Shown: positions 20,899 to 62,200 of the stretch, one piece after another | Layout: every line of letters starts with the position of its first letter | Numbering within the stretch: the stretch's first letter is position 1 | Assembly: GCF_964204645.1 (NCBI RefSeq) | Contig: NC_134034.1 | Coordinates: forward strand, 4,810,914-4,874,913 | Length of the DNA stretch: 64,000 nucleotides | Direction: 5' to 3' | Origin: Tubulanus polymorphus | Lineage: Eukaryota > Animalia > Nemertea | Notes under the pieces: model-generated | What the model was told of the DNA's origin: nothing | Database searches by the model: none | The model's input: the letters and a program-made list of their open reading frames with translations, nothing else | Translations under genes and position numbers: made by a program

Positions 20899-21248
20899 GC
20901 AAAACTCATAAAAATGAAAAATAAATTCTCACACGCTCGAATTTATTTTTCATTTTTATGAGTTTCACTCCTAATTCAAGTAGAAATTGTTATTATTTTT
21001 ATGTTTTTCATTTTTTACTCACCCGCCCGTTCAACCTTTAGCTTGAAAGCCTATTATCCCTATTACTCTTAAAATATTCATATATATGAATAACATTTAA
21101 ATCATTGAACTTCTAAAATCAATTTTAATAAAAAATTTAGTATTAAAATGGAAGCAAATAAGTACTACTGCCCAACATGTAAGATAAGTATAGATAAGTC
21201 TCAAAAAGCAAGACACAATAAATTGAGAATAAATTGAAATTAGAATAT
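20899..21248 (+). repeat. Left inverted repeat of the Maverick (inverted copy of 36203-36565)
   Basis: Near-exact reverse complement that includes the first polB codons (MEANKYYCPTC); the outer ~100 bp are missing. Confidence 0.9.
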
Positions 21249-22432
21249 TTACAGTTATATTCAGAACAGTTAACAAAGGGAAAGAAATTTATTGAATTAT
21301 GGAATAATGATCCAAATAATGAACAATACGTTGAATTTGATATCAAGGATCTGATGTTTATACTAGAACATGATTCTATTTGAGCCTATATACATTCAAT
21401 GTACAGAGCTATAGAATAAATCTATAAATTCACAGCTGTTACAGCTGTTACTATGACGTCGAGACATTATGAATCAATATTACAAACGTGTAGAGAGAGA
21501 ACACTCTAGAACCGGAACTAGATGACGTGGCATAATCAACGACGTGTCATTCTAGAAATCGCCCCGGAAATGAAAAGGCGCCGTAATATTGTGCTCAGGA
21601 TATTCTATCTTTCGAAACGAAATTAGGTGTTTATAGTACACAATTATAAATCTAAATGTAAGTACTGTTTGTTGTAGTTATTAAGGCTATTAAATATGAA
21701 ACCTTTAGATATATTTAAGTGTATTTAGTATATCTTTTAGATAGCTAGAGTTACCGCTAATATCTTTTAGATTAATAAAACGCCATACGCATCAAGAAGT
21801 GATAGAGAAACTCAAGATACTCTTTCTGACTGAGGAATCAACAGCAATGGATATCGAACCAATAGAAATTGACACAAGAAACACCAAAAGATCAACGAAG
21901 AAACTATATAAGAATTTCAAAAACATTGAGACTCCAATGATTAAGTTTAACATTTGTTGATGTAGTTAAATATTTACCAGCAATTGAAAAAATGTTTGTA
22001 ATTATAAATTGTATTTATAGAAATCAAATAATGTATTGGAAGAAATGACTGAACAACTTGTATAATATATTGTGCAAATCTGTTTGGTGAATTTTTATGT
22101 TCAGTCGTTTCAATTATGATTAACGCATGCGCATTAAGCAAAAACGCTCCTAATAGAGCGGTATTGCCTAGTGCGAACACGTTTTGATATTTTATGTCGG
22201 TCGTTTCTATTTTACAGAATTTATAGAATGAATATATAATTAGGATTAACGCATGCGCATTAAGCAAAAACGCTCCTAATAGAGCGGTTTGCTCAGTGGT
22301 ATTATTTAGATATCAAGGAATCGAAACTGACTTATCAAAAACAGCGAAGAATGAAAAAAGATGACGTTGGTCGAAGAAATGGAAGAGGATTATAAAATAT
22401 TAACCAATTTAGTAAAAAAATACGTATAATAA

Positions 22433-23107
22433 ATGGAACCAGAACAACCACAAACTATCAATATTACAAATAACACTGGCGTTATAAACATATATTACAA
22501 GAAGTGTTCTAAATGTGAATTAGATAAATCATTAACAGAATTTAGTAAGCGTAAGATTAGCAAAGATGGTTTTCAATATTGCTGTAAAACTTGTTTTAAA
22601 CTATATACCAAACAATACCGAGAAGATAATATAGAACATTATAATTATTATATGACAAAATATATGAGAGAAAGATATCAAACAGATCTTAATTTTAGAT
22701 TGAAACAATGCTTAAGATCTAGATTAACACAATTATTCAACAAAGAAACACATTCAGAAACACTATCTAATTTATTGGGTTGTTCAGATGAATTTCTTAA
22801 ATCATGGATTATATTTCAATTCGATGATAAAATGAATATAGATAATTATGGGGATTATTACCATATTGATCATGTGTTACCAATATCTAAATTTAACATG
22901 AATGATGAATACAATAAAAAACTTATTTGGGGTTGGAAAAATTTAAGACCTTTAGAAAAGAAAGAAAATCAAATCAAATCTAATAAACTAGATTTACAGT
23001 TATATTTAGAACAGTTAACAAAGGCAAAGAAATTTATTGATCAATGGAACAATAATCCAAATAATGAACAATACGTTGAGGAATTTGATATCAAGGATCC
23101 GAAATGA
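22433..23107 (+). CDS. Zn-ribbon + HNH/EndoVII-like endonuclease of giant-virus type
   Basis: KKCSKC..K..EF..DG...CKTC; LLGCS..FL; NYG..YHIDHVLPISKF; W.NLRPL..EN..KSNK. Confidence 0.75.
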   Translation: MEPEQPQTINITNNTGVINIYYKKCSKCELDKSLTEFSKRKISKDGFQYCCKTCFKLYTKQYREDNIEHYNYYMTKYMRERYQTDLNFRLKQCLRSRLTQLFNKETHSETLSNLLGCSDEFLKSWIIFQFDDKMNIDNYGDYYHIDHVLPISKFNMNDEYNKKLIWGWKNLRPLEKKENQIKSNKLDLQLYLEQLTKAKKFIDQWNNNPNNEQYVEEFDIKDPK

Positions 23108-23441
23108 CTTATCTGGACAGTTATAACTACTGCTCCTAATAGATGGTGCCATAAACGGCACCCGCACAGTGATAAACAAAAGTAGTGAGATGGTGCCGTA
23201 CAGCACCCACATAGTAATATCAAATAGATTTTAAATAAAATATAATAAAAATTACATACCTTCAACTATCTATTATTTCTATTTTAATTTTTAATATTTT
23301 CTTTTCAAAAAAGAATACTTTGTATCACAAATAAAAAATACTAAAAAACAATAACTAATACTAGAATTCTTTAGCTTTAACTAGCTAGTATCATTTGAAG
23401 AATACTTATAATACTATTCTTATTAAATTTCTCTAATATAA

Positions 23442-24071
23442 ATGTCTAAGAAATCGAATAAGAATAATGTTAAAGTTGAAAAAACTTTGGAAGATTTAGG
23501 CCTAACAGATGATAATGATAATGTGACAACTAAATGTGATAATGGTGCCATATGGCGCTCACACTGTGATATTGATTATGAGTACTATTTATATTGTAAA
23601 CATCAACTCGAACTATTGATTGCGAGTGGCAAATCTAAAGAGTTTATTGGTAAAACAATAACTTTTCAAGAATTAGATAACATGAACAAAGAAAAAGTAA
23701 TCAAATATTTTAAGATTTATGAAGAGTCAAGATTAGCTAGAATAAATGATTCTATTTCTAATGGTATTATCAAATGTTATTGAAAATTATGTAACCGGCT
23801 AATGCCAATTAATGATGAAAATAAATTATATAGTGATTTAAAAAATGACTTCTTAGTTATGACTGAATTACAAAAATGGGTTGGATACGCTTCATTCCAA
23901 TTAGGATCGGTTATGACATTGATTTCTACTGGAGTTATAACATTTTCGAATATCAAACCTATGGAAAACAAAGATAAAAGTAAATCAGGTAAGAACGAAA
24001 CAGATGTACTACAACCAAACCACGAAACAGAAGATGAATCAGAACAAAAATTAAGTAAAATAAATGAGTGA
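23442..24071 (+). pseudogene. Maverick protein of unknown function, one internal stop
   Basis: ORFs 23442-23783 and 23802-24071 share a frame; TAAATG start; hydrophobic segment near the C-terminus. Confidence 0.65.
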
Positions 24072-24459
24072 TGATGGTGTCGTTCAACACCCACACGGTG
24101 ATATTAAAAAAAAGCCTAGATCTGAGAAACAAATTGAATGGGCAAAGAAATTAGGTAAAAGATCTGCAGAATTAAAAAAAGCTAAGAAAAAGAAATTTAC
24201 TGATATAAATGAATCTGGTATTAATTCAAATAATAATCCATCTAATTCTTATAATGCTGGAAGTGATAATATATTATATATTACAATTGGATTAATCACA
24301 GTAATTATATTCTCGGGTGTAATATATAAATATAAATTTAATAATAATGAAAGTGATAATGATAATGATGAACGGAAACTTCGTTACCCATGTACAGACA
24401 ATAAACCACCAGAAAATAAATCAAATGAAAATAAATCTAAAATATTATTAATGGATTAA
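24064..24459 (+). CDS. Basic single-TM protein
   Basis: KKKPRSEKQIEWAKKLG basic helix; TM ILYITIGLITVIIFSGVIY; TAAATG start. Confidence 0.7.
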   Translation: MSDDGVVQHPHGDIKKKPRSEKQIEWAKKLGKRSAELKKAKKKKFTDINESGINSNNNPSNSYNAGSDNILYITIGLITVIIFSGVIYKYKFNNNESDNDNDERKLRYPCTDNKPPENKSNENKSKILLMD

Positions 24460-24462
24460 AAT

Positions 24463-24780
24463 ATGATGAAAAAACAACAATATTTAAGAGATTTATATTA
24501 TAACCCAGAAAGTGAAGTTTCATATTCAAGTGTTTCGGAATTATGGGATAAAATTAAATCTGATAAAGAAAAAATAAAATATAGTGAATTAAAATCATGG
24601 TTACAAAATCAACCCACATATCAAATTCATAAAAAGATGGATAAAAAATATTTAACAAGAAAAGTAATGGTTTCATGTATTGACCAACAATGGCAAGCTG
24701 ATTTAATTGATATGAAAAACTTAGAAGAATATAACAAAGGATATTTTTGGATACTAAATGTTATAGATGTTATAGATAGA
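24463..24780 (+). pseudogene. int: Maverick retroviral-like integrase, N-terminal third only
   Basis: YYNP...WLQNQPTYQIHK...QWQADLIDM...ILNVIDV, then homology ends abruptly. Confidence 0.9.
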
Positions 24781-25390
24781 TATTTGATCCTAATATTTCA
24801 TTAGCATCGGTTAGATCTAATTCATCTTTATTAGGTGTTGCTAATAAAAAATCTTCATATAATTCTTTACCATTTACTTTTTTATTTGAAACAAACTTTG
24901 TAACATATCTAAATGGGTGTTCTATAAATTCTCTTAAACCAACACGTTCTTTAACATTAGTAATATGTACCTTTGTATTCATATGTTTATTCCAATTTGA
25001 TGGAGCGTTTGAAAATTCACCATTACAATAACCACAATAATTTCTATTTTCACTAACATCTAATATTATTGAATTATTATATGTAGAAGGTATTACATTA
25101 TTTGATGTAGAGGGTATTACAGATGTAGTAGGTATTACAGATGTAGTAGTAGGTATTACAGGTGTTGTAGTAGGTATTACAGGTGTAGTAGGTATTACAT
25201 TATTATCAATTACACTATTATTAACAACACCACTTTTATTATTATCGATTTCTATCAGTTTAGTTTTATAATTTTTAAAAATAGGATCAAATATCAAAGC
25301 TATATTACAAGGTATTACATAATATAAACCATCATTATTTTCATGTGTATCGATGTATGGAATATGTTTATATACTTTACCTCCTTCCAT
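24770..25390 (-). CDS. VIPTT-repeat and C2H2 zinc-finger protein (3' end probably lost at the deletion junction)
   Basis: About 6 VIP(T/S)T repeats; CGYC...H....VH; TAAATG start. Confidence 0.65.
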   Translation of the reverse strand: MEGGKVYKHIPYIDTHENNDGLYYVIPCNIALIFDPIFKNYKTKLIEIDNNKSGVVNNSVIDNNVIPTTPVIPTTTPVIPTTTSVIPTTSVIPSTSNNVIPSTYNNSIILDVSENRNYCGYCNGEFSNAPSNWNKHMNTKVHITNVKERVGLREFIEHPFRYVTKFVSNKKVNGKELYEDFLLATPNKDELDLTDANEILGSNIYL

Positions 25391-25422
25391 TTATATAATA
25401 AATTTTTATTAAAGTTAAAATT

Positions 25423-26670
25423 TTAATACATAACACTATCTAATTGTGAATTTACAATATTTAATTGCGCGTCAGATATAATATAAATGTGCATTCTAAA
25501 ATTTTTGATTCCTTTATTCTTTGTCATGAATAATTGTATTCCATCTTTTGTATTTTGTAGTTTTTTTCCAGAACCATGTAATGAATTATCTTCAGTTGTT
25601 CTAAAATCTAACCATAATGCAAATTTATTACCGGTATAATAATTTATTTGATTAATATTACAATCTTCAGATGATTTTATTTTTTCATTCATAAAATGTT
25701 TTCTAATTTCTGGCCATTGATCAATCATTCTCATTCCTTGACAAAATATTTTATTCGCTATACCTTCGATAGTTATTTCTACTTTAGTTATTTCAGGATT
25801 ATAATAATTCTCAACATTTATTGCGCCATTAGTATACGTTCCAATGGTAAAAAATATTAATATACCTTTAATAGATCTTCTAGGAAAGTTAATATTCTCA
25901 TTAATAATTTCATCATTTGCATTAATAGTTACAGTTTTAAATTTATCAATATAATCATATAATAATGAAAATCCTTGATTGTATTGAGTTTGAATTATAC
26001 TTGAAATATTTTCATCAGTTACTGTATCATATTCTAAACATATATTCGATAATTTATAACTCATATCTTTATTAACACTAGATAATACAATTTCATTTAC
26101 AGGAGCAAATGTTATCTCAAATATAATATCTTCTTGAATTGCGTATTTATATAAAGGTGCATTATTATTTATCAATTCAAAATCTAACGGAATTTTATAT
26201 TTGCTTCCATATATACTTTTTATCAATTTATCTACATCATTAGTTAATATTGCGCTATTAGCTTCTGATCTTAATTTATTTTGGTTTTCTGATTGAATTC
26301 CTTGAAATATCATATTATTTCTATTTTCTTTAGTTAACCATAAATCTTTATAATGTGAAAATAAATTATAATCATCTAATGAGAAAACTGTTTCTGGACC
26401 AATCTTTATTGTTAACTTTTTAATCAAATATCTTCCAACATTATCAACAACATAATTATTATTATTGCCAGATACTTTTATATCAGCTGATAAATAAATA
26501 CTGTTTGGAACATAAAAAGTATTTTGTGTTAATCTCGGAATTCTAACATATAAAGTTTCATCGGGATTAATATTTGAAGGGTTATGAGTAATTATATGAT
26601 GTGATCTTTCTGCTTTAATAGCATTAGATATTCTATGATTCTTAGAAGGATTGATATAACTCCCACTCAT
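25423..26670 (-). CDS. Major capsid protein (double jelly roll)
   Basis: 415-aa intact beta-rich ORF: HNPSNINPDETLYVRIP, VVDNVGRYLIKKLTIKI, LSNICLEYDTV, FALWLDFRT; motifs recognised from invertebrate Maverick MCPs. Confidence 0.82.
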   Translation of the reverse strand: MSGSYINPSKNHRISNAIKAERSHHIITHNPSNINPDETLYVRIPRLTQNTFYVPNSIYLSADIKVSGNNNNYVVDNVGRYLIKKLTIKIGPETVFSLDDYNLFSHYKDLWLTKENRNNMIFQGIQSENQNKLRSEANSAILTNDVDKLIKSIYGSKYKIPLDFELINNNAPLYKYAIQEDIIFEITFAPVNEIVLSSVNKDMSYKLSNICLEYDTVTDENISSIIQTQYNQGFSLLYDYIDKFKTVTINANDEIINENINFPRRSIKGILIFFTIGTYTNGAINVENYYNPEITKVEITIEGIANKIFCQGMRMIDQWPEIRKHFMNEKIKSSEDCNINQINYYTGNKFALWLDFRTTEDNSLHGSGKKLQNTKDGIQLFMTKNKGIKNFRMHIYIISDAQLNIVNSQLDSVMY

Positions 26671-26737
26671 TTATTTAACAAAAAAAATTAATTATTTATT
26701 TTTGATTATGTTTACTTGATATTTTTTGATATCATGT

Positions 26738-28318
26738 TTACTTGATATTTTTTGATATCATATTTACTAAACCAAAAATAATAGCACTTACAACTGTAAT
26801 TAAAAATTAAATAATATGTTCAGCAGCAAAGTTAATAATGTTTCCTGCAGATTTCAATATAAAACCAACAATTGAAGCAATAACTCCTGGTAAAGCTGCA
26901 GCAGATTTTTTAGATAGTTCCCATAAATATTTTGCTAATTTCTTTAAACCATCTTTAACTTTATCTTGTATAGAATTATTACCTGGAGGTTTATCTGGTT
27001 TATTGGGAGTAGGAGTAGATTTCAAAGCATTTGATATTGCTAAACCAATTGTTGTAAATAACATAGTTACAGCTGTTAGAATTGAAAGAATTGTTATTCC
27101 TTCTAATTTAAATAATAATCTTATTCTGTCTTTTAATGATATTTCAGAATTTGGTTTAATCAACAAATCTTTAAAAATAACTTTTAATCTATTAATATTA
27201 TAATCATATGATTTTAATAATAATTTAATTTCTTCTTTTTGTAATTCTATGTTATATTCTAAATCATCAATTTCTTTTTCTAAATATGCATTTCTTTTTT
27301 TAAATTCAATTTCTTCAATAACTTTATTATCTCTATCTAATTTTAATTGTTCTATTTCTTTATTTTTATCAGTTCTATCTTTTTCTAAAAATCTAATTTT
27401 AAAATCTCTTTTACTTTTTTCATGCGCAATTTTATCAGCTGATTCTTGCATACCTTTAATTTCTCTACGTGTTTTTTCAGGAAATTGTTTTAATTCTTCA
27501 TCAGTTAAATCAAGTAATCCTTTTTCTAGTAAAGATTGTATTCGATTTATTCCAGTTTCAGTACCGGGTGTATCTAAAATACTATTCATCTGTTCGTCAA
27601 ATGAATGAATTGCATCTAACATGCTATCAAAATGTTTTCCTAATTGTAATTGATTTGAATCATTATCAATTTGTTGAATATCTCTTCTAGATGTTTCGGG
27701 TGTTGAAGATCTTAATTTATCTAATCGATCTCTATTCTCTTCCATTTCCGTTTCTGGATTATCATCGATTATTTTAAATAAGTCATCAATTTTTTGACTA
27801 AATACTCTTATATTATCATCTCTTTCTTTTTGTGTAACACCAGTTATTTCATTACTAATACTTATTCTCTTAATTCTAAATGTTTCTAAATTTTCCAAAG
27901 TTGATTCCGCTAATATTTTACTTCGTCTTGTCCTTTTATTAGTGATATCAATATAATAATCATCTTTCAAACGATAATAATATTCACCATCTAAAAACTC
28001 TTGTACTAAAAGTCTGGCGCCTCTACCATTTATATTATATCCAGAATCTTTAAATACATCTTGAAACTTATATATAAATTTATTATTTTCTATATCTTCC
28101 TTTGATAAACCTGGGTCTAAATTTTCAGTAGGTATTCTCGATCTAGTTCTTCTATCAAATTCATCTGTTGATGGGGCTTTAGAACCACTATCTGCTAAAT
28201 TAGAATTATATGCCGATTCATTACCATCATCAATATTAGTTTCTGCATCATTATAATCATCAATATATCCTTCATTATTATTTCCCATTTCATAATCTTC
28301 TCCACCTTCTACATCCAT
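26738..28318 (-). pseudogene. Acidic/coiled-coil protein with C-terminal TM helices, late nonsense codon
   Basis: 503-aa ORF; the frame continues past the TAA as FLITVVSAIIFGLVNMISKNIK*. Confidence 0.7.
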
Positions 28319-28334
28319 TTACATAATAAAAAAA

Positions 28335-29636
28335 TTAAAATTTAAAATATAATATTCCTCCGATTACAATTCCTATACAAGTTATAGCTAATTTAGTATT
28401 TTCATGGGATTTATTATCATCATTTAGTTTAATTATATCATGTTGAATTTTATCAGTTTTTATATCTTCTGATGTATTGTAATCTTTTATTTTAGAATCA
28501 TTAACCAATTTAATATTCTTAGTTTTAGTTTCAGTTGATTGAATATGTTTTTTATTTTTTTCACCCTCCATTAATTTTGGAGCAGTAATAATCTTTTTAT
28601 TTATATCATTCAATCCAAATAAATTATTTATTGTTGCAGTTTTAATTAGATTATTATAACCAATTATATTTCCCATCTTCAATACTAAATCATTAGAAAT
28701 AATTAATAGATTAGGGCCTATACAATAATTAAGTCTTACATGAGATTTATCTAAATAATTTTGATATCTTATAATGTTTTCTGGAATCGATTTATTTTTA
28801 TCATTATGAATTGAATCTTCAAATAAAACTTTAAACTGTTTCTGCGCATCGAATGAAGTGTTATCATTTCCAATTATTGGGGATCTTGTTTCAACTTGTG
28901 ATCCTAGAATACAAATCAAATAAGTTCTAATAGATTGATTTATTCTTTCTATACCTGATTTAGTAAAACCTTCACTATTTTCTAAAATAAAATAAACCCA
29001 ACCATTATTATTATCAATTTTATAATTATGATAAGCTCCAATTCTATGCATATAATCAATTCTTTTTATTTCATACTGTTCACCAACACCTTGCAATTTA
29101 CCATGCGCTCTGAAATCGGAATTAATATTTATATTAAATTCATTACATATTTTATAAAACTTGGATATATTAATATTATTATCCAATTCTTTAAAATATT
29201 TAGACCCGGGTAAAGGACATTCTAATTCATTTAATATTATTCTGATTTGAAAATATGTGTGAAATCTAAATATTGTATGAATTAATTTTAAATCAGAATA
29301 CTTCAAATTTTTATCTAAATTATTTAAATTATCATTCCAACTTATTCCACATCCTGTTGTTGCACAATAAACAGCAAAATTTAATTGATTCTGCCAATAT
29401 TTCATATTAGATTTTACTTTATATATATGATATTCATCTCGAGTAAAAGTAACTTCATATGTATTAAATATATTTTCCATTTTAGAAATAAAAAACTGTG
29501 ATTCATTAACATAAATTTCTAAATTAGTTAATGAATTTAAAACTACATTTTTATATGTAATATTTTTCTTAAAATCTATTGCTGGAATATTATATTTAAT
29601 TGATTTATAATATTGGAAAGCTTTTGGAAACCCCAT
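28335..29636 (-). CDS. Maverick protein with C-terminal TM anchor
   Basis: 433-aa intact ORF; QLNFAVYCATTGCGIS, RFHTYFQIR, ILGSQVETRS; terminal hydrophobic helix. Confidence 0.75.
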   Translation of the reverse strand: MGFPKAFQYYKSIKYNIPAIDFKKNITYKNVVLNSLTNLEIYVNESQFFISKMENIFNTYEVTFTRDEYHIYKVKSNMKYWQNQLNFAVYCATTGCGISWNDNLNNLDKNLKYSDLKLIHTIFRFHTYFQIRIILNELECPLPGSKYFKELDNNINISKFYKICNEFNININSDFRAHGKLQGVGEQYEIKRIDYMHRIGAYHNYKIDNNNGWVYFILENSEGFTKSGIERINQSIRTYLICILGSQVETRSPIIGNDNTSFDAQKQFKVLFEDSIHNDKNKSIPENIIRYQNYLDKSHVRLNYCIGPNLLIISNDLVLKMGNIIGYNNLIKTATINNLFGLNDINKKIITAPKLMEGEKNKKHIQSTETKTKNIKLVNDSKIKDYNTSEDIKTDKIQHDIIKLNDDNKSHENTKLAITCIGIVIGGILYFKF

Positions 29637-29664
29637 TTATATAACTAAAAAATTAATAATTTAT

Positions 29665-30087
29665 TTATTCTTTTAATAATTTATCTTGTTCTTCAACTGT
29701 TATATGACCATTTAAACTTAATATATAATCTAGTGTATTCTTTAATTTATTAATTTCTTTTATATTAGTTTTAATTTTTTCTTTATTACTTTTTATATTT
29801 AATTTTGAACTTATACCGGTTAAAACACTTGAACTTAATCCTAATACACCAATTGATATAGCTAAAGGTGTTAATGGGCTGAATATTGCTAAAAATGTTA
29901 TTACAGAACTAATTGTAACCGAACCACTTATAATCAAATAATATATAATTTTACTTTTTAAATATTTTTTCTTTTTTATCTTTAAGTCACTTTCAAATTC
30001 TAATATTTGTTTTTCTAAATATGTTTTTAATTTAGTTTTATTTATATCATGAGGAATAATATCAATACTATCAACTTTATCTTCCAT
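29665..30087 (-). CDS. Two-TM coiled-coil protein
   Basis: Hydrophobic hairpin flanked by Lys-rich coils; TAAATG start. Confidence 0.7.
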   Translation of the reverse strand: MEDKVDSIDIIPHDINKTKLKTYLEKQILEFESDLKIKKKKYLKSKIIYYLIISGSVTISSVITFLAIFSPLTPLAISIGVLGLSSSVLTGISSKLNIKSNKEKIKTNIKEINKLKNTLDYILSLNGHITVEEQDKLLKE

Positions 30088-30106
30088 TTATTTAGAATAA
30101 AAATTA

Positions 30107-30529
30107 CTAATTAGTAAACTTATAAGCAACAAACATAACAATAACTGTTCCACCTAAAATCCATATTATTTCATATTTCTGTTGTTCTTTACTTGGGGTA
30201 TAATAATCTGATAATTTAGGTTTGTATAGATGTAATTTTTCTTTATTTGTTACTGCGTTATATAAACTCATTGCATTATCAACTGATTGAAAATCTCTAT
30301 GTGAAATCTTCTGATCATATAATTCTTTATTGATGTAATCCATATAGTTTTGTCTCTTTTCTCTATATTCTTCTGCAGCTTTATTGTATTTCTCTAACGC
30401 TAAGTTATGTCTTCTTTGTTCTCCTAATGAACTATTTTTATCAATATGTTTAAATAAATAACCACCACCAGTAAATGCTAAAGCGTTAACAATTGCCGAT
30501 CCTATAATAGTTATAATTGCAGAAGCCAT
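30107..30529 (-). CDS. Small protein with N- and C-terminal hydrophobic helices
   Basis: IGSAIVNALAFTGGGYLF...EQRRHNLALEK; TAAATG start. Confidence 0.75.
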   Translation of the reverse strand: MASAIITIIGSAIVNALAFTGGGYLFKHIDKNSSLGEQRRHNLALEKYNKAAEEYREKRQNYMDYINKELYDQKISHRDFQSVDNAMSLYNAVTNKEKLHLYKPKLSDYYTPSKEQQKYEIIWILGGTVIVMFVAYKFTN

Positions 30530-30556
30530 TTATTTAGCAAAAAAATTACACACTTC

Positions 30557-30778
30557 TTATATGGGAGGAATATATTTTTGTTTTTCCAAATAATCAATAG
30601 TTAAATTAGATAAAGTAACCGCTAATGTTAACTTTAAAATATCATTTATATCAAATCTATCAACATTAACACTTCCCATTTTGAATACTTTTTTTAATAC
30701 CATTGAATAACCAACAGTTCCAACTGATAGTAATGCGCCATTATATAATCCAGTTATTATCCACTTATTATCACTCAT
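30557..30778 (-). CDS. Small hydrophobic protein
   Basis: 73 aa, two hydrophobic segments, TAAATG start, tight packing with neighbours. Confidence 0.7.
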   Translation of the reverse strand: MSDNKWIITGLYNGALLSVGTVGYSMVLKKVFKMGSVNVDRFDINDILKLTLAVTLSNLTIDYLEKQKYIPPI

Positions 30779-30927
30779 TTATTTATCAAAAAATTACTAT
30801 CATCAAAATATTTAGTTATCTTAGTGATGATTATTTCAACATTTATTTCATTACTAGTTTTATGATTATCATATATTTTGGATAATATGTTTTTGATATC
30901 ATCAATAATTCAATCTTCATTTAATTC

Positions 30928-31119
30928 TTAATATTCTAAAGGTGATTTAATTAAATCAATTACTTTTTCTATATTATAATTTTCTTTATCAATCATTGAT
31001 GCATTGTTAAATGATTTACTTTTTATATCAGTAATTACATCATTTAGTTTAATTCTCATTTCTTTACCATGTTTAAAATCAAACCCAAAACATATACTCG
31101 GTCCAACAGTTATATTCAT
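30928..31119 (-). CDS. Small hypothetical Maverick protein, possibly truncated
   Basis: T-tract + TAAATG start. Confidence 0.5.
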   Translation of the reverse strand: MNITVGPSICFGFDFKHGKEMRIKLNDVITDIKSKSFNNASMIDKENYNIEKVIDLIKSPLEY

Positions 31120-31136
31120 TTATATAGTGAAAAAAA

Positions 31137-31898
31137 TTACTCTTTACATCTTATAACTAATTCATAAATTACAGGGAAATTATTTAAATCAATTAAGTAT
31201 CCATTATGATTTCTAATTTCTAATCTAAAATTATTAAAACGAGGAATGCATGGTTTGAAATCACATTCTGTTAAATTATAATTTATTTGTGTTCCAAATT
31301 CTTTAACATTCTTCAATGGTAAAATGTTTAGTAAACCAGAATTACAAGTTATATCTTTAGTTGCTTCGAATGTTTTTGTAGGATCGATTAAATTGCAATA
31401 AATATAAAAATGTGTGTAAGGTATTAAGTTTGGTGTAGTAGCGTCAATATTTGTAAAAGATCCATCTGGAAGAATTCCTAACAGTTTAGCTATAGGTTTT
31501 TTTACCATAAATTTATGTTTTTCACTATTAGACAACCTTATCTTTATTCTATCAGAACTCTCACTTTTTAAAAATCTAATACTAAACCCAGAACTACTAC
31601 CTAATTTGTGCCAGGCTTTTCTATTAATTTCTTGTGCTAATGTATCTAAATTATATAACCCCGGTTTTAAATATATATAGACGCATTCATTTTTATTTTT
31701 ATTAAAAATTAAAAAAGCTCTATGTTCAATAGTTTTATTCGATATATTGTAAAAAGAATTACATAAACTTATATTAACTAATTTTAAATCTACACAATTC
31801 TTAAATTCTCTATCTAATTGTACTAATAAATTATGAGATTTATAATTTGTAAGTTTTCTAGAATCAACATATATTCTATATTCTTTTAATTCTACCAT
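31137..31898 (-). CDS. Minor capsid protein (penton, single jelly roll)
   Basis: IYVDSR, NSFYNIS, LKPGLYNL, FYIYCNLI, LEIRNHNGYLIDLN pattern. Confidence 0.8.
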   Translation of the reverse strand: MVELKEYRIYVDSRKLTNYKSHNLLVQLDREFKNCVDLKLVNISLCNSFYNISNKTIEHRAFLIFNKNKNECVYIYLKPGLYNLDTLAQEINRKAWHKLGSSSGFSIRFLKSESSDRIKIRLSNSEKHKFMVKKPIAKLLGILPDGSFTNIDATTPNLIPYTHFYIYCNLIDPTKTFEATKDITCNSGLLNILPLKNVKEFGTQINYNLTECDFKPCIPRFNNFRLEIRNHNGYLIDLNNFPVIYELVIRCKE

Positions 31899-31913
31899 TT
31901 ATTTTACATATTT

Positions 31914-32253
31914 TCATTCAAAATCAATATCGTGGTGCCCTTTTTCATTCTCACCTTTATATATGAAATAGAAATCACCAGAATATAATTCTTCTAGATC
32001 TTCACTTGATAATCTATGAAATCTATCTGGTAAATAAGTTCTGAATTTATATTTATTTCCTTTTAATCCTTCATATTCTAAATTTATTAATTTATCTCCA
32101 TATTTATTAGTAATTGTTTCAATGTTAGTAATTAAATATTTCTTGTGAATTGTTAACTCAGTTAGTTTTTTTAAATTTATAATCTACAGATTTGACGCTT
32201 GAAGTATCTTTAATTCTATCTAAGAATTCACTGTGTACTTGTTTACTCTCCAT
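31914..32253 (-). pseudogene. Frameshifted orthologue of 63333-63686
   Basis: Aligns with copy 2; an extra A in an A-run breaks the frame. Confidence 0.8.
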
Positions 32254-32281
32254 TTATTATACAAATTTTTATTGAAATTGA

Positions 32282-35200
32282 TTAACACGCTAGAATCCTT
32301 TTCATAATCTCATTTTCTGTTGTTTCTTCTCTTTTGAATTTTATATATTCATCTAAATTGCAACCATAGGCGACTGTGTGGATTCCATCATCTAAAATAT
32401 ATCTTTTATCATCAAATGGGTTTAGACTTATCTTCTCTATCTCTTCAATATACATTTCATGATCTTCAGATCTTAAACATTTCATTTTATGTTTTCTAAC
32501 TTCTTCATTAAATATACAATTGATGTAATCTTTAAAATGAATATTCTTTTCAACAACGCTTTTGGTAATTCCTTTTAACTTTTTAGCTTCATGAGTTTTA
32601 GTTTTATAACTATACATTTTAGATCTAATACCTATGAACTCTATCATTTCTTCACCGCCTAATTCATCCTTAAACTTCCCAGGAACTTTTTTATTATCAT
32701 TGGTAAACAATTCATGATTTTTTGGATAGTTACTGAAATCAAAATGATGTTTTGATGTTTTTAAATCATCTGTTATATTATTAGTTTTTATCTTTAATAT
32801 GTAACTGTCAGTATCGAAGTATAAGATTTATATATGTTTTTCTCCAAAATGAGGTTGTAATACGTTATAGTAAAATTGATACATTAATAATTTTGAAATT
32901 TCTAAAACTGCAGCTCCAACATAAATCGGTTTATTAAATTTCATTGAAGTTCTTCTCATCTTAACTGCGGCTAAATTTTCATCAAATATTCTGTTACCTA
33001 TAAACTTAGGATATGATTGTAAATGCCTTATCCTTTTACCATTACTAACTAACTCAATATCATTTCTATTTCTAATATTTTCACAAGTCTTACCATAGAA
33101 CGCATTATTCATTAGTTTAAAATAATCTTTTTCAAAATCAGTTTTAGATTTAGTTCTCTGTGTAGTATTAAAATCTATATATTTTTCTAACCATTTAGAT
33201 TGACTGAATGAAATATATCTATGTACTTTTTTAAATATCATTCCTTGTCTCAAATAAAACTTCAACATTCTATAATGCACAACGTAATTATATTTATCTT
33301 CTTGAGTTACCATTAACTTTTCAGTATGAATATGATTATCGGGTTTAATTCTTTTTTGATAATTTGATAATTCTTCATGTTTAACAGTTTTATGTTCGGG
33401 ACAATATGCTAGATTTCTAGATTTGAATTTAATATTTTCAGGGTATTCTAAATCTACAACGAAGAAGTAACCAGTATCTGAATCATCTGCAATATCTAGG
33501 ATTCTTTTCTTCCAATCAAATTTATCAATTTGTAAAACTTCAGTTATTTCAAACATCCCATAAGGTTGTGGTTCCATCATTGCCCAACCATAAAGATTAT
33601 TTGCATCTATGTATAATAATTTATATCCAGGATTATCATTTACATTGAAATATCTATCACCCAATACACCTGAAACACCTCCTCTTATAGATTTTTCAAA
33701 TAATAGTAATTGATCTATATTTGTTAACAAATCCATTTTTATATCTGTAAATTTTAATCCACAATCCCATGTTAATCCTGGTGATGAATAACAATGACAA
33801 GGATCAATATTGAAATATTTTAGGTTTACATCTCTAAACCTTTCGAATATATCGGTTAATAATAATACATCTGATTTTAAATATAAATCTACTAATTGAC
33901 CATGATTTTCTATTTTGAAATGATTCCAAATATTCAATGTTCTATTATAGACTTCATCTTTAACATATTCATTTTTTAATTCATCATAAAATTGTTCTTT
34001 CAATAATTCAGTTATTTTAAAATTATTATGATTTTTATAGAAAGAATATGGAATTGCTCCTTTATATCTCATTAATTTAAAATCATCATTATTTGGGTAA
34101 TATTCTTTTAATATCTTTAATTCATCATCAACTAATGATTTTGATAAGTTATCTAATGAACTATTTAAAAATCTATATGAATCTATAAATCTTAGACAAC
34201 CAAATTGGAATGATATATAATTCTCAGATGTTTTAGCTAACATTCTAAATTTATAAGTTGGTATTTTATCTTTTGATCTATTTGAATTTGATATTTCTAT
34301 TTCATTATTGATTTCTTCTATTTTATAACATAACTGTTTGATAAATAAATGTGCATCATATCCTGATAGATTATGAAATATAACTGGAACAAAATTCATT
34401 TTCTTTGCTTGCAAATTACAATTCTCATGCGCAGCGCCTCTAAACTTTCCGTTCAAATGATCATGGTCTCTTACTTTTTTAACTTTATAATTAAATATCT
34501 TTTCACAATAATAACATTTACCTGAAAACACAAATTCTTCTTTATCTTCTTCTGTCATAATCATTTTTTTATTTGTATTCAATAATTTACTAAATCTTAT
34601 TTCATATTCAATTAATAAGTCACAAAAATGATTGATAACATTTTAATTTCTATAATGATGATATTCACTTTCAATTAGTTTTGGATAATCAGATTTAATA
34701 TATAACCCGAAAGCAGCAGCTGATTGATGAATCTTTTTAATAGTATTTGTTTTTGGTGGTTCATCTGAAAAATCATTTTCATTAGAATTTAATTTCTTTC
34801 TTTTATAATATATTTCTTTTCTATCTTGATCAGTTAGTTCTTTATTTAATGATTCAAAATCTCCATATATTACAAATGGTACTTTATTTTTGTAATCATA
34901 TTTTTTGAATTCTAATATTTTATCTTTTTCATTTGGTAAAACTAATTTACAATAATCATGATTATCACATAGTTGTTTATGATTTAATAATGTACTTTCA
35001 TTACTAAATTTATGTAAACATTTTCTACATAGATATATTTTATTATGGTGATCACTTTCTGTTCTAAAAAATAAATCTATTTGTGTAATCCACATATAAT
35101 GATTCTCATAATATAGTATATCTATAACATCATTTGAATCATAATCTTTTGATAGATATAAAGGTTCTAATGTATAATGTTTTATGTTGTTACCTTTTGT

Positions 35201-36316
35201 ATTTGGTAATTTAATTAAATCAAATACATTTATTTTAAGATTATTATCTCTTTCTATTTTTGGAATATTTTTAATTCTAACAGGATACTTATCTATCTTA
35301 TAATTATTTTCAAATTGTTTATAATGAGTTAATCTAAAACTATGTTGTTTATAATCTTCAACTGGGTGTAAGCAACTTATAATTGTCCATAGAAAACATT
35401 TATCATCTTCATTTTGTACATTTATTACAGCATTAGTTTTAAATGGTAGTTTAATATAACTTGATGCTTCAATATCTGGTTCTTTATAATATGATAAATT
35501 ATTTTCATCAATTGGTTTTGATTTAGTTAACTTATTATATTTTGTGTTATAAACATGCAAAGTTATAAATATTATCTCATCAAATATTAAACCAGATCCT
35601 TCAAAATATTTCTCTTCTATTTTAGTTTTTATTTCATTATAACATTTATTTAATTTATCATCGATATGTTGTTTAGATATAATATGTTGTGAATGAGAAT
35701 TTATATTATATATTGGTTTATCTTCAGATTTTATAAACTTTACTTTAACTGATATACTAATTTTAGGATATTCAACATCTGTAATTATTTTTATTATTTC
35801 TTTCATATTTTCTAAATGTTTTTTATTTTCTTCTAATGTTTTACCTTTATGAAATTTAAACTCGATAGCTGCTGGACCAATATCACTTTTAAATGCTTCG
35901 GTTATCTCTATATCTTTTTTATTATCTAATGAATTAATATAATTTCTTACATCTTCCATATATGGTCTTTTATTGTTTAATTTATTTTTTATTCTTTTAA
36001 TTGCGCTTTGTTTCTTATCATTATCCTTATCAAAATAATCTTCACCTATAATATCATTATTCATATTTCTAATATGACTTTGAGATTTCAAATGTTCTTT
36101 ATAATATCTTTTATCACTGAATGATTGATTACATTTATCACATTTGTATGTTTCTTTTTCATCCTTTAATTCTTCTAATTTAGTTTCTAATATATTATCT
36201 TTATATTCTAATTTCAATTTATTCTCTAAATGTGTTCTAGTTTTATTGTGTCTTGCTTTTTGAGACTTATCTATACTTATCTTACATGTTGGGCAGTAGT
36301 ACTTATTTGCTTCCAT
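32282..36316 (-). pseudogene. polB: Protein-primed family B DNA polymerase (1344 codons, two nonsense mutations)
   Basis: All three ORFs are in one frame; both stops are GAA in copy 2. N-terminal C2H2 fingers, DFES, VRDHDH..GAAH..CN, FHNLSGYD, YIDANNLYG, KLMNNAFYGK, YFDTDS. Confidence 0.96.
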
Positions 36317-36396
36317 TTTAATACTAAATTTTTTATCAAAATTGATTTTAGAAGTTCAATGATTTAAATGTTATTCATATATATGAATATTTTAAG

Positions 36397-36664
36397 AGTA
36401 AAAGGGATAATAGGCTTTAAAGCTAAAGGTTGAACGGGCGGGTGAGTAAAAAATGAAAAACATAAAAATAATAACAATTTCTACTTGAATTAGGAGTGAA
36501 ACTCATAAAAATGAAAAATAAATTCGAGCGTGTGAGAATTTATTTTTCATTTTTATGAGTTTTGCGAGTAATTCAAGTAGAAATTGTTATTATTTTTATG
36601 TTTTTCATTTTTTACGAGCTCGACCGTTCGACCTTTGGCTTGAAAGCCTATTATCCCTATTACT
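36397..36664. repeat. Terminal imperfect palindrome: 129-bp arms, 10-nt loop
   Basis: 36397-36525 pairs with 36536-36664; loop GAGCGTGTGA. Confidence 0.92.
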
Positions 36665-57864: not shown

Positions 57865-58167
57865 TTAATTTGAATTATGTAACCTATCATTTAATTCATG
57901 AATATATCTATGATTTCTCAAACTCTTTTCATTTTTATATCTTTTATTGCATATTTTACAGCATTTAATATTATTCAATCTATCTGAAATATAATTTATG
58001 TTATCTTTTAAATCTGTATATTTAATTTTGCAATTATCATAGAATTCTAACAACTGTTTTAATGAGTAAACTGAAAATGAAACTAATCCTGCAAGCATAA
58101 TAATTGATTTAATATTCTGTTGATTTTTATATATTAGATGTAATAAATTTAATATATTTTCACTCAT
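57865..58167 (-). CDS. Small TM + C2H2 zinc-finger protein (Maverick-like)
   Basis: CKICNKRYKNEKSLRNHRYIH; TAAATG start. Confidence 0.6.
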   Translation of the reverse strand: MSENILNLLHLIYKNQQNIKSIIMLAGLVSFSVYSLKQLLEFYDNCKIKYTDLKDNINYISDRLNNIKCCKICNKRYKNEKSLRNHRYIHELNDRLHNSN

Positions 58168-58187
58168 TTAATTATTCGATTAATTCA

Positions 58188-58388
58188 CTAATCTGATTCA
58201 ATAACTTTTTTATTTCGATGATTGTTTCCATTTAACTTCTTTAACTTTTTACTCAATTTAATGTTTTCATTCAATAGATCTTTTGAAATATTTTCATAGT
58301 AAAAGTATAATGCAGCCAATATCAACCCTTCTGCTACAAGATAATGTTTTAAATCACTTTTTTCAATTGGAATGCTGAAACCATCCAT
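58188..58388 (-). CDS. Small single-TM protein (Maverick-like)
   Basis: T-tract + TAAATG start; YLVAEGLILAALYFYY. Confidence 0.55.
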   Translation of the reverse strand: MDGFSIPIEKSDLKHYLVAEGLILAALYFYYENISKDLLNENIKLSKKLKKLNGNNHRNKKVIESD

Positions 58389-58429
58389 TTATTTAAGAGA
58401 AAAATTTAAAGTAATTTGAAATATCTTAT

Positions 58430-59023
58430 TTTGAATATTTAGAGTTGAATTATTATTTTTGAGTTATGATATTTTGATTTAAGATGGTGTGATTTATTGC
58501 TTCGAGTATAATATTTTCCGCAATCAATATTCCGCATAAAACGCTTTCAATGGGATTATATTTAGGTGTTTCGATTTTATTGTCTAAGTTACATTGAATT
58601 CCAACATCTTTGAATGATTTTTCATTTGGAATGTCAGGGATAAATCTTTTCTCTAGTAATCTGAAAAATAATACATAACATTCTCTGAAAGGGTAATAAC
58701 GTAAGTGTAGAAATAATGTTTTATGTGAATTTTCATTATTAGAAAGTGATTGTATTTCATCTGTAATTATTAAATGTTGATCTATTTCATCAAATGTTGT
58801 GAATTTTGGAATTATTGTATTGAATTAGATTTTATCTTTTTCATTGGATAACTCTATCATTAGATAATGATTTTTAAATATTAATTCAGTAATATTATTC
58901 ACTTGAAAACGAAAACGTCCAGTTTGAATCAAATATTTATATAGGAATAAAATTTCTAATTGTAAAATATTTTTCTAATTCATTTAAATCGATATCTTTG
59001 AACTGTAGTATCTGTTCATTCAT
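58430..59023 (-). pseudogene. Disrupted Maverick-like ORF with C-terminal zinc finger
   Basis: TAAATG start (MNEQILQF); terminal CGKYYTRSNKSHHLKSKYH; stops and frameshifts. Confidence 0.5.
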
Positions 59024-59278
59024 TTATTAGTCATTTTTTTATTAAAAATTAATAATTCTCGCACACTCGAATTTATTTTTCATTTTTTATGAGTTTCACT
59101 CCTAATTCAAGTAGAAATTATTATTATTTTCATATTTTTTCATTTTTTACTCACCCGCCCTTTCAACCTTTAACCTAGAACAACTAAACCCCTATTACTC
59201 TTAAAATATTCATATATATGAATAAAATATAAATGAATAACTTCTAAAATCAATTTTAATAATAAATTTATTATTAAA

Positions 59279-62200
59279 ATGGAAGCAAATAAGTACTACT
59301 GTCCAACATGTAATATCAATATAGATAATTCCCAAATATCAAGACACAATAAAACTAAAACACATTTAGAGAATAAATTGAAACTAGAATATAAAGATGA
59401 TATATTAGAAACTAAATTAGATGAATTAAAGAATGAAAAAGAAACATACAAATGTGAAACATGTAATCAATCATTCAGTGATAAAAGATATTATAATGAA
59501 CATTTAAAATCTAAAAGTCATATTAGAAATATGAATAATGATATTTTAGGTGAGGATTATTTTGATAATGACAATGATAAGAAACATAAGACAATTAAAA
59601 GAATAAGAAATAAATTAAACAATAAAAGACCATACATGGAAGATGTAAGAAATTATATTAATTCATTAGGTAATAAAAAAGATATAGAGATAACCGAAGC
59701 ATTCAAAAGTGATATTGGCCTAGCAGCTATCGAGTTTAAATTTCATAAAGGAAAAACATTAGAAGAAAATAAAAAACATTTAGAAAATATGAAAAATATT
59801 ATAAAAATAATAACTGATGTTGAATACCATAAAATTAGTATATCTTCTAAAGTAAAGTTTATAAAATCTGAAGATAAACCAATATATAATATAAATTCTC
59901 ATTCACAACATATTATATCCAAACAACATATAGATGAAAAATTAGATGAATGTTATAATGAAGTAAAAACTAAAATAGAAGAGAAATATTTTGAAGGATC
60001 TGGTTTAATATTTGATGAAATAATATTTATGACTTTACATGTTTATAACACAAAATATAATAAGTTAACTAAATCAAAACCAATTGATGAAAATAATGTA
60101 TCATATTATAAAGAACCAGATATTGAAGCATCGTGTTATATTAAACTACCATTTAAAACTAATGCTGTTATAAATGTACACAATTTTGATGATAAATGTT
60201 TTCTATGGGTTATAATTAGTTGCTTACATCCTGCAACTGATAATATTTGTAGATTAACTCATTATAAACCATTTGAAAATAATTATAAGATAGATAATTA
60301 TCCTGTTAGAATTAAAAATATCCCAAAAATAGAAAGAGATAATAATCTAAGAATAAATGTATTTGATTTAATCAAATTACCAAATACAAATGGTAACAAT
60401 ATAAAACATTATACATTAGAACCTTTATATCTATCAAAAGATTATGATTCAAACGATGTTATAGATATATTATATTATGAAAATCATTATATGTGGATTA
60501 AAAGAATTGATTTATTTTTTAAATGAGAAAATGATTTTGATAATAAAATATATCTATGTAGAAAATGTTTACATAAATTCAGAACTGAAAGTGCATTATT
60601 AAATCATAAACAATTATGTGAAAATCGTGATTATTGTAAATTAGTTTTACCAAATGAAAAGGATAAAATATTAGAATTCAAAAAATATGATTACAAAAAT
60701 AAAGTACCATTTGTTATATATGGAGATTTTGAATCATTAAATAAGGAACTAACTGATCAAGATAGAAAAAAAAATATATTATAAAAGAAAGAAATTAAAT
60801 TCTAATGAAAATGATTTTTCAGATGAACCACCAAAAACAAATACAATTAAAAAGATTCATCAATCAGCTGCTGCTTTCGGGTTATATATAAAATCTGATT
60901 ATCCAGAACTAATTGAAAGTGAATATTATCATTATAGAAATGAAAATGTTATCAATCATTTTTGTGACTTATTAATTGAATATGAAATAAGATTTAGTAA
61001 ATTATTGAATACAAATAAAGAAATTATAATGGCAGACGAAGATAAAGAAGAATTTGTGTTTACAGGTAAATGTTATTATTGTGAAAAGATATTTAATTAT
61101 AAAGATAAAAAAGTAAGAGACCATGATCATTTAAATGGAAAGTTTAGAGGCGCTGCACATGAGAATTGTAACTTACAAGCTAAGAAAATTAACTTTGTAC
61201 CAGTTATATTTCATAATCTATCAGGATATGATGCTCATTTATTTATCAAACAGCTATGTTATAAAATAGAATAAATCAATAATGAAATAGAAAGATTAAA
61301 TTCCAATGGATCAAAAGATAAAATACCAACTTATAAATTTAAAATGTTAGCTAAAACATCTGAGAATTATATATCATTTCAATTTGGTTGCCTAAGATTT
61401 ATAGATTCATATAGATTTTTAAATAGTTCATTAGATAACTTATCAAAATCATTAGTTGATGATGAATTAAACATATTAAAGCAACACTATCCAAATAATG
61501 ATGATTTCCAATTAATGAGATATAAAGGCGCAATTCCATATTCATTTTATAAATCACATAATTATTTCAATATAACTGAATTATTGAAAGAACAATTCTA
61601 TGATGAATTAAAAAATGAATATTTTAAAGATTAAGTATATAATAGAACATTGAATATTCGGAATCATTTCAAAATGAAAAATCATGGGCAATTAGTAGAT
61701 TTATATTTAAAATCAGATGTATTATTATTATCGGATATATTTGAAAGGTTTAGAGATGTAAACCTAAAATATTTTAACATTGATCCATGTCATTGTTATT
61801 CTAGTCCAGGTTTAACATGGGATTGTGGATTAAAATTTACAGATATAAAAATGGATTTGTTAACAAATATAGATCAATTATTATTATTTGAAAAATCTAT
61901 AAGAGGAGGAGCTTCAGGTGTATTAGGCGATAGATATTTCAATGTAAATGATAACCCCGGATATAAGTTATTATATATAGATGCAAATAATTTGTACGGT
62001 TGGGCAATGATGGAACCACAACCTTATGGAGTATTTGAAATAAGTGAAGTTTTACAACATGAAAATAATGATAAATTTGATTGGAAGAAAAGAATCTTAG
62101 ATATTGCAGATGATTCAGATACTGGTTACTTTTTTGTTGTAGATTTAGAATATCCTGAACATATTTAATTTAAATCTAGAAATCTAGCATACTGTCCAGA

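Follow-up and report, generated by a model that had tools for sequence, protein, structure and literature searches.

Mavirus and the polinton-like virus (PLV) Gezel-14T are the precedents for small DNA viruses with promoters shared with a giant virus (10.1101/068312; 10.1101/2022.07.28.501842). In animals, PLVs have been described within entomopoxvirus occlusion bodies (PMC11296320), in a report with no occurrence of 'promoter' or 'TAAAT' in its main text, and the main text of the adintovirus paper (PMC8502044) does not mention promoters. Our literature search returned no report of a TAAATG start motif in Mavericks and no particle-forming cycle tied to a helper for any integrase-bearing animal Maverick. 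In vaccinia, a TAAAT(G/A) initiator lies 5–7 bp behind a T-containing core (PMC5294985); consensus tables show a T 10 nt before TAAAT as well as TAAAAA cores (PMC11423596), and the polymerase core itself recognises TAAA (PMC12917281).

Structure of the element and its relatives

The window (the whole 64,000-nt stretch of DNA analysed) contains two copies of a Maverick (polinton). Copy 1 is a broken deletion derivative of an AT-rich clade (76% A+T). Its left terminal inverted repeat (TIR; 20899..21235, 337 nt, 98% complementary to 36229–36565) is cut off ~35 nt past the centre of the terminal palindrome and contains the polB promoter a second time, with the gene's first codons. The right terminal palindrome (36397..36664) has two 129-nt arms that are 89% complementary (hairpin −111 kcal/mol, z −26), and the right end of the element, at ~36665, reads 5'-AGTAATAG, a 5'-AG type end. 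A pattern for the poxvirus concatemer-resolution motif had no match in the terminal palindromes.

On the forward strand, copy 1 carries an HNH/endonuclease VII-like gene of 224 aa (22433..23107; PHROG 1035, E = 1e-17) with a relative in L002, one of four related elements (L001–L004) with capsids 71–76% identical to that of copy 1. It is followed by a conserved Maverick gene (23442..24071; found by tblastn from L001/L002, 186 representatives) that starts with TAAATG, is split by a stop in copy 1 and encodes a protein of ~206 aa in the relatives. This protein has no Pfam or PDB family; TBP/TFIIB was considered as its identity and rejected, Pfam and PDB giving no support and Atlas leads remaining under 0.9. 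A predicted membrane protein of 131 aa (24064..24459, start TAAATG) precedes a 5' fragment of an rve integrase gene (24463..24804), 73% identical to residues 1–107 of the 362-aa L002 integrase, which matches PF00665 and PF00385. The rest of the integrase and the ATPase were lost through an internal deletion; no ATPase match exists anywhere in the window, and L001–L005 have a packaging ATPase (PF04665). The defectiveness of copy 1 was overlooked in the first-pass annotation.

The remaining genes lie on the reverse strand. A truncated low-complexity/zinc-finger-like gene (24770..25390) is followed by an intact double jelly-roll major capsid protein of 415 aa (25423..26670; model pLDDT 87). Foldseek matched it to the PBCV-1, SGIV and mavirus capsids (E down to 2e-16), and a sequence search gave 927 homologs, which we take to be Maverick-type capsids; it is not a virophage-family major capsid protein, since the mavirus match is by fold only (9% identity). 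Next come a 503-aa gene with a shortened C-terminus (26807..28318), which we take from its naming to be GasderminX-like; a conserved 433-aa gene (28335..29636; 67% identical to L001), presumably PZ, again by naming; three small hydrophobic genes of 140, 140 and 73 aa (29665..30778); and a 63-aa ORF (30928..31119). A putative minor capsid protein of 253 aa (31137..31898) is assigned by position and size, its single-sequence model (pLDDT 32) being too low for fold assignment. The SSB-like gene (31900..32253) is a frameshifted copy of a 117-aa gene that is intact in copy 2; the closest Atlas cluster with a name, phi29 SSB (0.85), is a lead only. The gene of a protein-primed DNA polymerase B (32282..36316; PF03175, E = 2.5e-15) is in three pieces.

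Copy 2 (59054..64000, forward strand) is degraded, extends past the end of the window and carries polB, the SSB-like gene and the start of the minor capsid gene, 91% identical to 31599–36540. AT-rich ORFs lie on the reverse strand to the left of its hairpin (57865..59041).

The Maverick hallmarks found are protein-primed polymerase (pPolB), an rve integrase fragment and a double jelly-roll capsid, with TIRs and a right-end 5'-AG. No adenain/Ulp1-like cysteine protease was matched in Pfam among the ORFs of the window and of L001, L002 and L004, which are incomplete or broken elements. L001 also encodes a deoxynucleoside kinase (dNK); homolog searches with it and with the HNH protein pointed to no named virus as donor. 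In the host the family is present in high copy number, with many divergent contigs in three sequencing runs; the one presumed RNA run gave 3 short pieces, which speak neither for nor against transcription. IMG/VR protein scans with capsid, capsid-alignment, ATPase and polB queries returned no relatives, as did a polB family search of the three MAGs behind the more distant Mavericks L006–L008. A capsid tree (quick IQ-TREE, 70 rows) left out L008, proteins of ≤330 aa and 51 of 120 listed homologs.

The start motif, its upstream boxes and their conservation

TAAATG at the Maverick gene starts, as reported by the first-pass annotation, is confirmed. All 13 copy-1 starts listed there read TAAATG, the polB start (36316) is TAAAATG and the integrase start (24463) is TAAAATATG. 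The hexamer occurs at 13 of 15 copy-1 starts versus 38 of 601 other element ATGs (Fisher p = 1.7e-13). Because in-frame internal ATGs are unable to follow TAA, a position-shifted control was added; elsewhere in the regions upstream of these starts, the frequency of TAA per position is 0.083 (binomial p = 7e-13). When starts were chosen mechanically, as the first ATG of non-overlapping ORFs of at least 100 aa, the counts were 10/14 versus 41/602 other ATGs of the element; among the misses are polB, the integrase and pieces of disrupted genes. In the window's non-Maverick ORFs the motif stands at 1 of 23 starts. The longer pattern AATTTTT-N5-9-TAAATG occurs eight times in the window, always at an ORF start, versus 0.30 expected, and none of 100 shuffles reached eight.

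The copy-2 starts also read as described (TAAAATG at 59279 and 63333; TAAATG at 63701, 59023, 58388 and 58167), but three do not give independent support, as their genes are ~91% identical to copy 1 in DNA. The other three, left of the terminal hairpin, belong to short ORFs that match no L001 or L002 protein. The reading frame from 59023 ends after eight codons and that from 32253 after 31. None of the 40 listed variants, of 105 over 29550–31250, falls inside the five TAAATG hexamers there, numbers too small for meaning.

Two A/T boxes, a T-tract (T-class) and TAAAAA (A-class), were recognized upstream of the starts, where positions −12 to −18 are almost devoid of G/C. Sorted post hoc, the T-tract stands at 16 of 17 starts of the capsid/membrane block, with a spacer to TAAATG fixed at 5–8 nt, and TAAAAA mostly at polymerase, SSB-like and zinc-finger genes. 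One or other box precedes 32/43 starts versus 9/111 non-start TAA(A)ATG. T-class sites of copy 1, all on the reverse strand, are those of the capsid gene (26668..26689; AATTTTTTTT-GTTAAA-TAAATG, kept in L001–L004), the 503-aa gene (28316–28336), the 433-aa gene (29634–29654), the hydrophobic genes (30085–30105, 30527–30547 and 30776–30795) and the 63-aa ORF (31117–31138); their T-runs of 5–8 nt and spacers of 6–8 nt agree with the first description. A-class sites precede the HNH gene (22413..22435, forward strand; TAAAAA-N11-TAAATG) and, on the reverse strand, the zinc-finger-like gene (25388–25408), the SSB-like gene (32251–32271) and polB (36314–36335; TAAAAA-N9-TAAAATG). Left of the copy-2 hairpin there is one site of each class (T, 58386–58406; A, 59021–59041). 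The putative minor capsid gene, with TAAATG and no T-tract, and the ATPase lie outside the T-class, which counts against the class split. The classes echo the late (T-tract) and intermediate (TAAAAA) promoters of vaccinia; the single late-like promoter first proposed describes the T-class well and overlooks the A-class box.

The T-tract is not merely a terminator, since it also precedes the L001 dNK gene, which has no co-oriented upstream neighbour, and lies within upstream codons at L001 4328. TTTTTNT is depleted in element ORFs (12 versus 28; less so in giant-virus bins, 63 versus 70), a non-specific effect because A-runs are likewise depleted.

In L001–L004, 29 of 31 mechanically chosen starts have TAAATG. 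Across 39 orthologue pairs, which are not independent of one another, identity is 0.85–1.0 at −4..−1 and 0.82 at −12 versus 0.15–0.54 at −45..−19; that the motif positions were kept while the latter diverged points to selection on the motif.

Which polymerase reads the sites

We propose, with a probability of roughly 0.6, that this is a helper-dependent, virophage-like Maverick clade and that the sites are promoters for which a co-infecting member of the Nucleocytoviricota would supply the RNA polymerase. The promoter type of cytoplasmic large DNA viruses, as claimed at first pass, is suggested at the sequence level by the architecture, the conservation in four elements, the presence of the motif on divergent genes (two L002 starts are 19 nt apart), the lack of recognisable transcription genes and the tight gene packing. 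No RNA polymerase, TBP, TFIIB or capping family was found among 43 proteins scanned against Pfam (~40 of them element proteins). Many element genes are separated by 0–30 nt, leaving little room for Pol II signals, and 32.4 kb of intronless ORFs contain sense-strand AATAAA 180 times, with 175 expected, or once per 180 nt; the control is weak (4 versus 4.4 expected in the non-Maverick ORFs of the window).

As in vaccinia post-replicative promoters (PMC5294985; PMC11423596; PMC12917281), TAAAT(G) is fused to the start codon behind an A/T core and a short spacer (5–8 nt from the T-run here, 5–7 bp in poxviruses), with T-rich and TAAAAA-type classes. Unlike in vaccinia, the T peak is at −12 instead of −13, the TAAAAA spacer is 8–11 nt instead of 14 (counted from the table in PMC11423596), and the promoters are carried by an element lacking a recognisable RNA polymerase, with a start site and poly(A) leader that are predicted only.

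In the proposed mechanism, the helper's RNA polymerase would read the shared TAAATG and the A/T-only box 12–18 nt upstream, start inside TAAA and slip on three template Ts; the resulting mRNAs would be near-leaderless and begin with non-templated 5' poly(A), and the slippage would replace an unfavourable T(−3) context by AAAAUG. Genes with a TAAAAA box (polymerase, SSB-like, zinc-finger and endonuclease) would be turned on before the T-tract genes of the capsid/membrane block, like vaccinia intermediate and late genes, and integrated copies would stay silent until the arrival of a helper in the cell, as those of mavirus do. Some observations count against a helper. A cytoplasmic polymerase would have to reach an integrated copy, and the high repetition of the family in the host means that nuclear steps are needed; several element ORFs may encode transcription factors; and the more distant Mavericks L005–L008 and L101 lack exact TAAATG, the TAAAATG of L007 being compatible with an ordinary A-rich translation context.

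The alternative that survives best, though unlikely, is that these are nuclear core promoters used by host Pol II and steered by element-encoded or host factors, with the boxes as early and late classes and no helper. It draws on the integration and repetition of the element, on a TATAAA-like sequence in many starts and on a conserved 206-aa protein and a zinc-finger gene without assigned function. Pol II initiates ~25–30 nt from a TATA box, however, and one touching the ATG would place the start inside the ORF; the T that 29 of 31 starts of L001–L004 have at −3, the short gene gaps, the frequency of AATAAA within ORFs and the lack of a TBP/TFIIB match also speak against it.

It is improbable that a linear element resident in the cytoplasm supplies the polymerase, as pGKL2 does for pGKL1, or that the motif survives from an earlier, helper-dependent stage in copies that are now only transposons. 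We know of no cytoplasmic linear element bearing an RNA polymerase in animals. Both window copies are broken, as befits relics, but a functionless motif would not have lasted while flanking intergenic DNA diverged. Yeast virus-like elements do derive from polintons (PMC11071308), and pGKL1/2 share with the present elements pPolB, AT-richness and a TAAAN initiator, used with slippage, but they have no capsid or integrase, carry their own RNA polymerase on pGKL2 and need a UCS promoter box, not a T-tract (PMC6211774).

A translation signal is very improbable, be it a stop-start at which ribosomes on long multi-gene RNAs would terminate and reinitiate or an A-rich context around the start. TAAATG can be read as stop plus start, and the L001 integrase/ATPase junction is one true case, alongside two junctions of the form TAA-TAA-ATG, but the TAA ends the upstream ORF at 0/13 window starts and 1/40 across the four elements, much as the first-pass annotation held; the triplet before ATG is never TAG or TGA, and boxes at fixed spacing, also on divergent genes, have no place in it. 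Chance in 76% A+T DNA or an ORF-calling artefact, for which the 51 TAAATG sites in the element and the bias of first-ATG calling towards upstream stops might speak, is refuted by three independent nulls and conservation in four other elements.

The candidate helper and comparison with known systems

The helper would be a host virus of pox-like or iridovirus-like type. The suggestion of a 'pox/asfar-like' helper stands in its pox-like half, which is compatible and not unique, and fits poorly in the other: the ASFV late initiator is TA(+1)TA (PMC7163114), but the invariant element here is TAAATG, with TATA directly upstream of only part of the starts. TAA(A)ATG is found at about half of the starts in iridovirus-like giant-virus bins and is common in other giant-virus bins too, so that a pox-like virus is not the only candidate type. 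IMG/VR motif scans (84, 47 and 92 loci) gave no helper with near-universal TAAATG; none of 118 loci had it at ≥80% of starts and the best of a set of 80 had 5/9, rates biased upwards because the loci were chosen by motif.

A broader reading, possible but on balance doubtful, is that the clade consists of endogenous virophages, inherited as silent satellites with a two-step promoter programme for a pox-like or iridovirus-like RNA polymerase, whose many copies act as an inducible defence like mavirus in Cafeteria. If so, the promoter would be a fingerprint predicting a helper before its discovery, and virophage-type endogenous defence would extend from protists to animals. The signature would also provide a simple sequence test for telling autonomous Maverick clades from helper-dependent ones, making animal Maverick transcription and giant-virus dependence directly testable.

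In gene content, the elements resemble adintoviruses with the 'Terrapene-class (Beta) virion module' (PMC8502044) in pPolB, rve integrase, double jelly-roll capsid, TIRs, 5'-AG end, an A32-type ATPase (here in relatives) and a block of membrane-type genes. They differ in a GC content of 20–24%, near-universal TAAATG starts, a 270-nt terminal palindrome, a dNK in one relative and a cysteine protease undetected in the available parts. The entomopoxvirus-associated PLVs, proposed as poxvirus hyperparasites, are likewise polinton-like elements in animals, but come from insect occlusion bodies, have other capsid lineages and mostly lack an rve integrase (PMC11296320). Mavirus, Sputnik and Gezel-14T have protist hosts, Imitervirales motifs, other capsid families and a helper dependence established by experiment, which here is proposed from sequence; what they have in common with the present clade is a small integrating DNA virus without an RNA polymerase and a giant-virus-type promoter on most of its genes (10.1101/068312; 10.1101/2022.07.28.501842).

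Structure and decay of the Maverick copies

The segment at 20899-36665 of the window is a Maverick (copy 1), a 24% GC island flanked by 337-nt inverted repeats. Its capsid protein, modelled as a double jelly-roll at pLDDT 87, matches PBCV-1 with a Foldseek E value of 2e-16 and belongs to a capsid group described as almost wholly metazoan (PMC10120064, PMC8502044). Copy 1 also encodes an integrase fragment, an HNH endonuclease, an SSB-like gene, a block of hydrophobic proteins and a protein-primed polymerase gene broken into three pieces. Set against its relatives, copy 1 has an internal deletion near 24770-24804 in which the ATPase and most of the integrase were lost, and several further genes carry stops or frameshifts. 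A second copy (copy 2), beginning at 59054, is 91% identical to copy 1 and more degraded. No cysteine protease gene was detected in the covered parts of the window and of three metagenomic relatives (L001, L002 and L004).

An imperfect 270-nt palindrome lies at each Maverick end (36397-36664, 20899-20965 and 59054-59190); copy 2, like copy 1 at its left end, is broken off 10-35 nt from the palindrome centre, which suggests a fold-back or breakage hot spot. The degraded left arm of copy 1 contains a 62-nt direct repeat (22112-22173 and 22238-22298) and a second copy of the 3' end of the endonuclease gene (21247-21354). Flanking host mobile elements (10796-13264, 18316-19215 and 19423-20454) comprise an LTR retrotransposon with an aspartyl protease, PIF1 helicase fragments and a DUF1759 gene of BEL/Pao type. 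The flanking retroelements and the metazoan character of the capsid group point to an animal host. On the minus strand at 57865-59041, AT-rich ORFs with the promoter-like sites described below, one encoding a C2H2 zinc finger, are fused to the copy 2 hairpin; they match neither copy 1 nor L001 or L002 and may represent the accessory end of a different element.

The TAAATG start signal and its upstream boxes

The TAAATG signal of this Maverick clade is real and conserved, and unreported in the literature covered. The first-pass annotation had read it as a poxvirus-late-like promoter, and every TAAATG start that it named was confirmed. The motif is found at 13/15 starts compared with 38/601 other ATGs (p = 1.7e-13), or at 10/14 compared with 41/602 when the copy 1 starts are chosen mechanically, and a position control against TAA elsewhere in the same upstream regions gives p = 7e-13. 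The TAA closes an upstream ORF at none of the 13 starts, in agreement with the earlier remark that it is generally not the stop of the preceding gene. Among the non-Maverick ORFs of the window, 1/23 starts with TAAATG. The full pattern of T-tract plus TAAATG occurs eight times in the window, always at starts, with 0.30 occurrences expected.

Five loci were obtained from one metagenome scan. The close relatives L001-L004 (capsids 71-76% identical to that of the window, 20-22% GC) form with the window a seven-row clade with an SH-aLRT of 100 in a quick tree, their placement resting on the identical or near-identical proteins P0002-P0005. They carry TAAATG at 29/31 starts versus 48/1018 other ATGs. 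Orthologous upstream regions (39 pairs) agree at 0.85-1.0 identity over -4 to -1 and at 0.56-0.82 over -18 to -12, exceeding the 0.15-0.54 seen further upstream, which argues that the start motif and the upstream box are both under selection. Among more distant Mavericks, the ATG of L005 (53% identity) is preceded at a few bases by TAAAT or TAAAC, L006 and L007 have TAAAATG (3/3 ORFs in the latter), L101 has the exact motif at 0/4 starts and L008 (55% GC) has none. Since the exact motif fades in this way outside the clade, it appears from this small sample of sequences to be a trait of one clade and not of Mavericks generally. Binning contamination is the most likely reason why the capsid contigs L006, L007 and L008 are found in bacterial and archaeal MAGs.

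Two upstream box types were distinguished. T-class sites have a run of at least five T, then 4-9 nt and TAA(A)ATG; A-class sites have TAAAAA, then 8-11 nt and TAA(A)ATG. With classes and gene groups defined after inspection of the data and orthologues that are not independent, either box precedes 32/43 starts versus 9/111 non-start occurrences of TAA(A)ATG. In this post hoc grouping, T-class boxes lie at 16/17 starts of the capsid/membrane block (16/20 if the minor capsid is included), while the polB, SSB-like, zinc-finger, endonuclease and integrase starts are A-class at 8/16 and T-class at 3/16; the other 16 starts, which belong to the putative minor capsid, ATPase, 131-aa, 206-aa and deoxynucleoside kinase genes, include four T-class and three A-class sites. 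The A-class pattern is present five times in the window (0.56 expected), four of them at starts. The deoxynucleoside kinase gene of L001 (10340-10981) has a T-class site and three close homologs at 60-67%.

Helper-promoter sharing is already known for protist virophages and PLVs, and entomopoxvirus-packaged PLVs are known in insects, with no promoter analysis in the main text (PMC11296320). No report of TAAATG, or of any giant-virus promoter, in animal Mavericks was found in the main texts of the non-subscription literature covered, including PMC8502044, PMC10120064, PMC11071308, PMC10328495 and 10.64898/2026.10.13.758929.

Transcription and candidate helpers

Judged from sequence, the Maverick genes are probably transcribed by the polymerase of a helper virus (estimated probability about 0.6). 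The Maverick ORFs that lack an assigned function could conceal a factor steering host Pol II, an arrangement that we consider unlikely given that the RNA polymerase, TBP, TFIIB and capping Pfam families had no match among 43 scanned proteins (about 40 from Mavericks); the most conserved such ORF product likewise matched nothing. Nor do the intronless ORFs favour host Pol II, with sense AATAAA as frequent in them as in codon shuffles (180 versus 175 in 32.4 kb, a count lacking a powered positive control), gaps of 0-30 nt between many genes and a distance of 19 nt between two divergent starts in L002. The T at -3, a base unfavoured by scanning ribosomes, argues the same way. Under helper transcription, a transcript starting within AAA with a poly(A) leader would present A in place of T at -3. 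Start sites, leaders, timing, induction and host benefit may resemble those of mavirus (10.1101/068312) and Gezel-14T (10.1101/2022.07.28.501842).

The helper would not necessarily be a poxvirus. A motif scan of IMG/VR returned giant-virus bins rich in TAAATG and TAAAATG starts; in three bins picked for the motif, stretches away from the matches have these at 13/22 (G001), 11/22 (G002) and 13/27 (G003) starts, and T-tract plus TAAATG at only 1/22, 1/22 and 2/27, respectively. The G001 and G003 capsids have an iridovirus (SGIV by entry) as the closest solved structure. About half of the starts are TAAATG or TAAAATG in the environmental giant viruses G001, G002 and G003 (L093-L100), L184 and L228, two of which have iridovirus-like capsids; no statement to this effect was found in a promoter review (PMC5294985). 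Maverick-like uniformity (80% TAAATG starts) was found in 0/118 IMG/VR loci scanned, all selected for the motif. Iridoviruses infect many invertebrate hosts and have a nuclear phase, so that a helper of this type would reach an integrated copy more easily. Poxviruses are the closer match for the combination of a strict TAAATG with a T-tract.

Comparison with known viral promoters

The asfar-like helper also proposed in the first-pass annotation is a poor fit, because the late initiator of ASFV is TA(+1)TA (PMC7163114) and its pacmanvirus counterpart is TATATA (PMC11788076), both unlike TAAATG. In vaccinia, late promoters consist of TAAAT(G/A) preceded at 5-7 bp by a T-containing core (PMC5294985); the consensus sequences place a T ten bases ahead of TAAAT in late promoters and TAAAAA fourteen bases ahead of TAAA in intermediate promoters (PMC11423596 Table 1; distances counted here). 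In the vaccinia intermediate complex, TAAA is read directly by the polymerase core and the upstream core acts as an AT-rich shape signal (PMC12917281), while slippage on TAAA yields poly(A) leaders in both vaccinia and yeast virus-like elements (PMC6211774). The Maverick sites share the layout of the vaccinia promoters, but their T lies one base closer and the A-class spacer is shorter.
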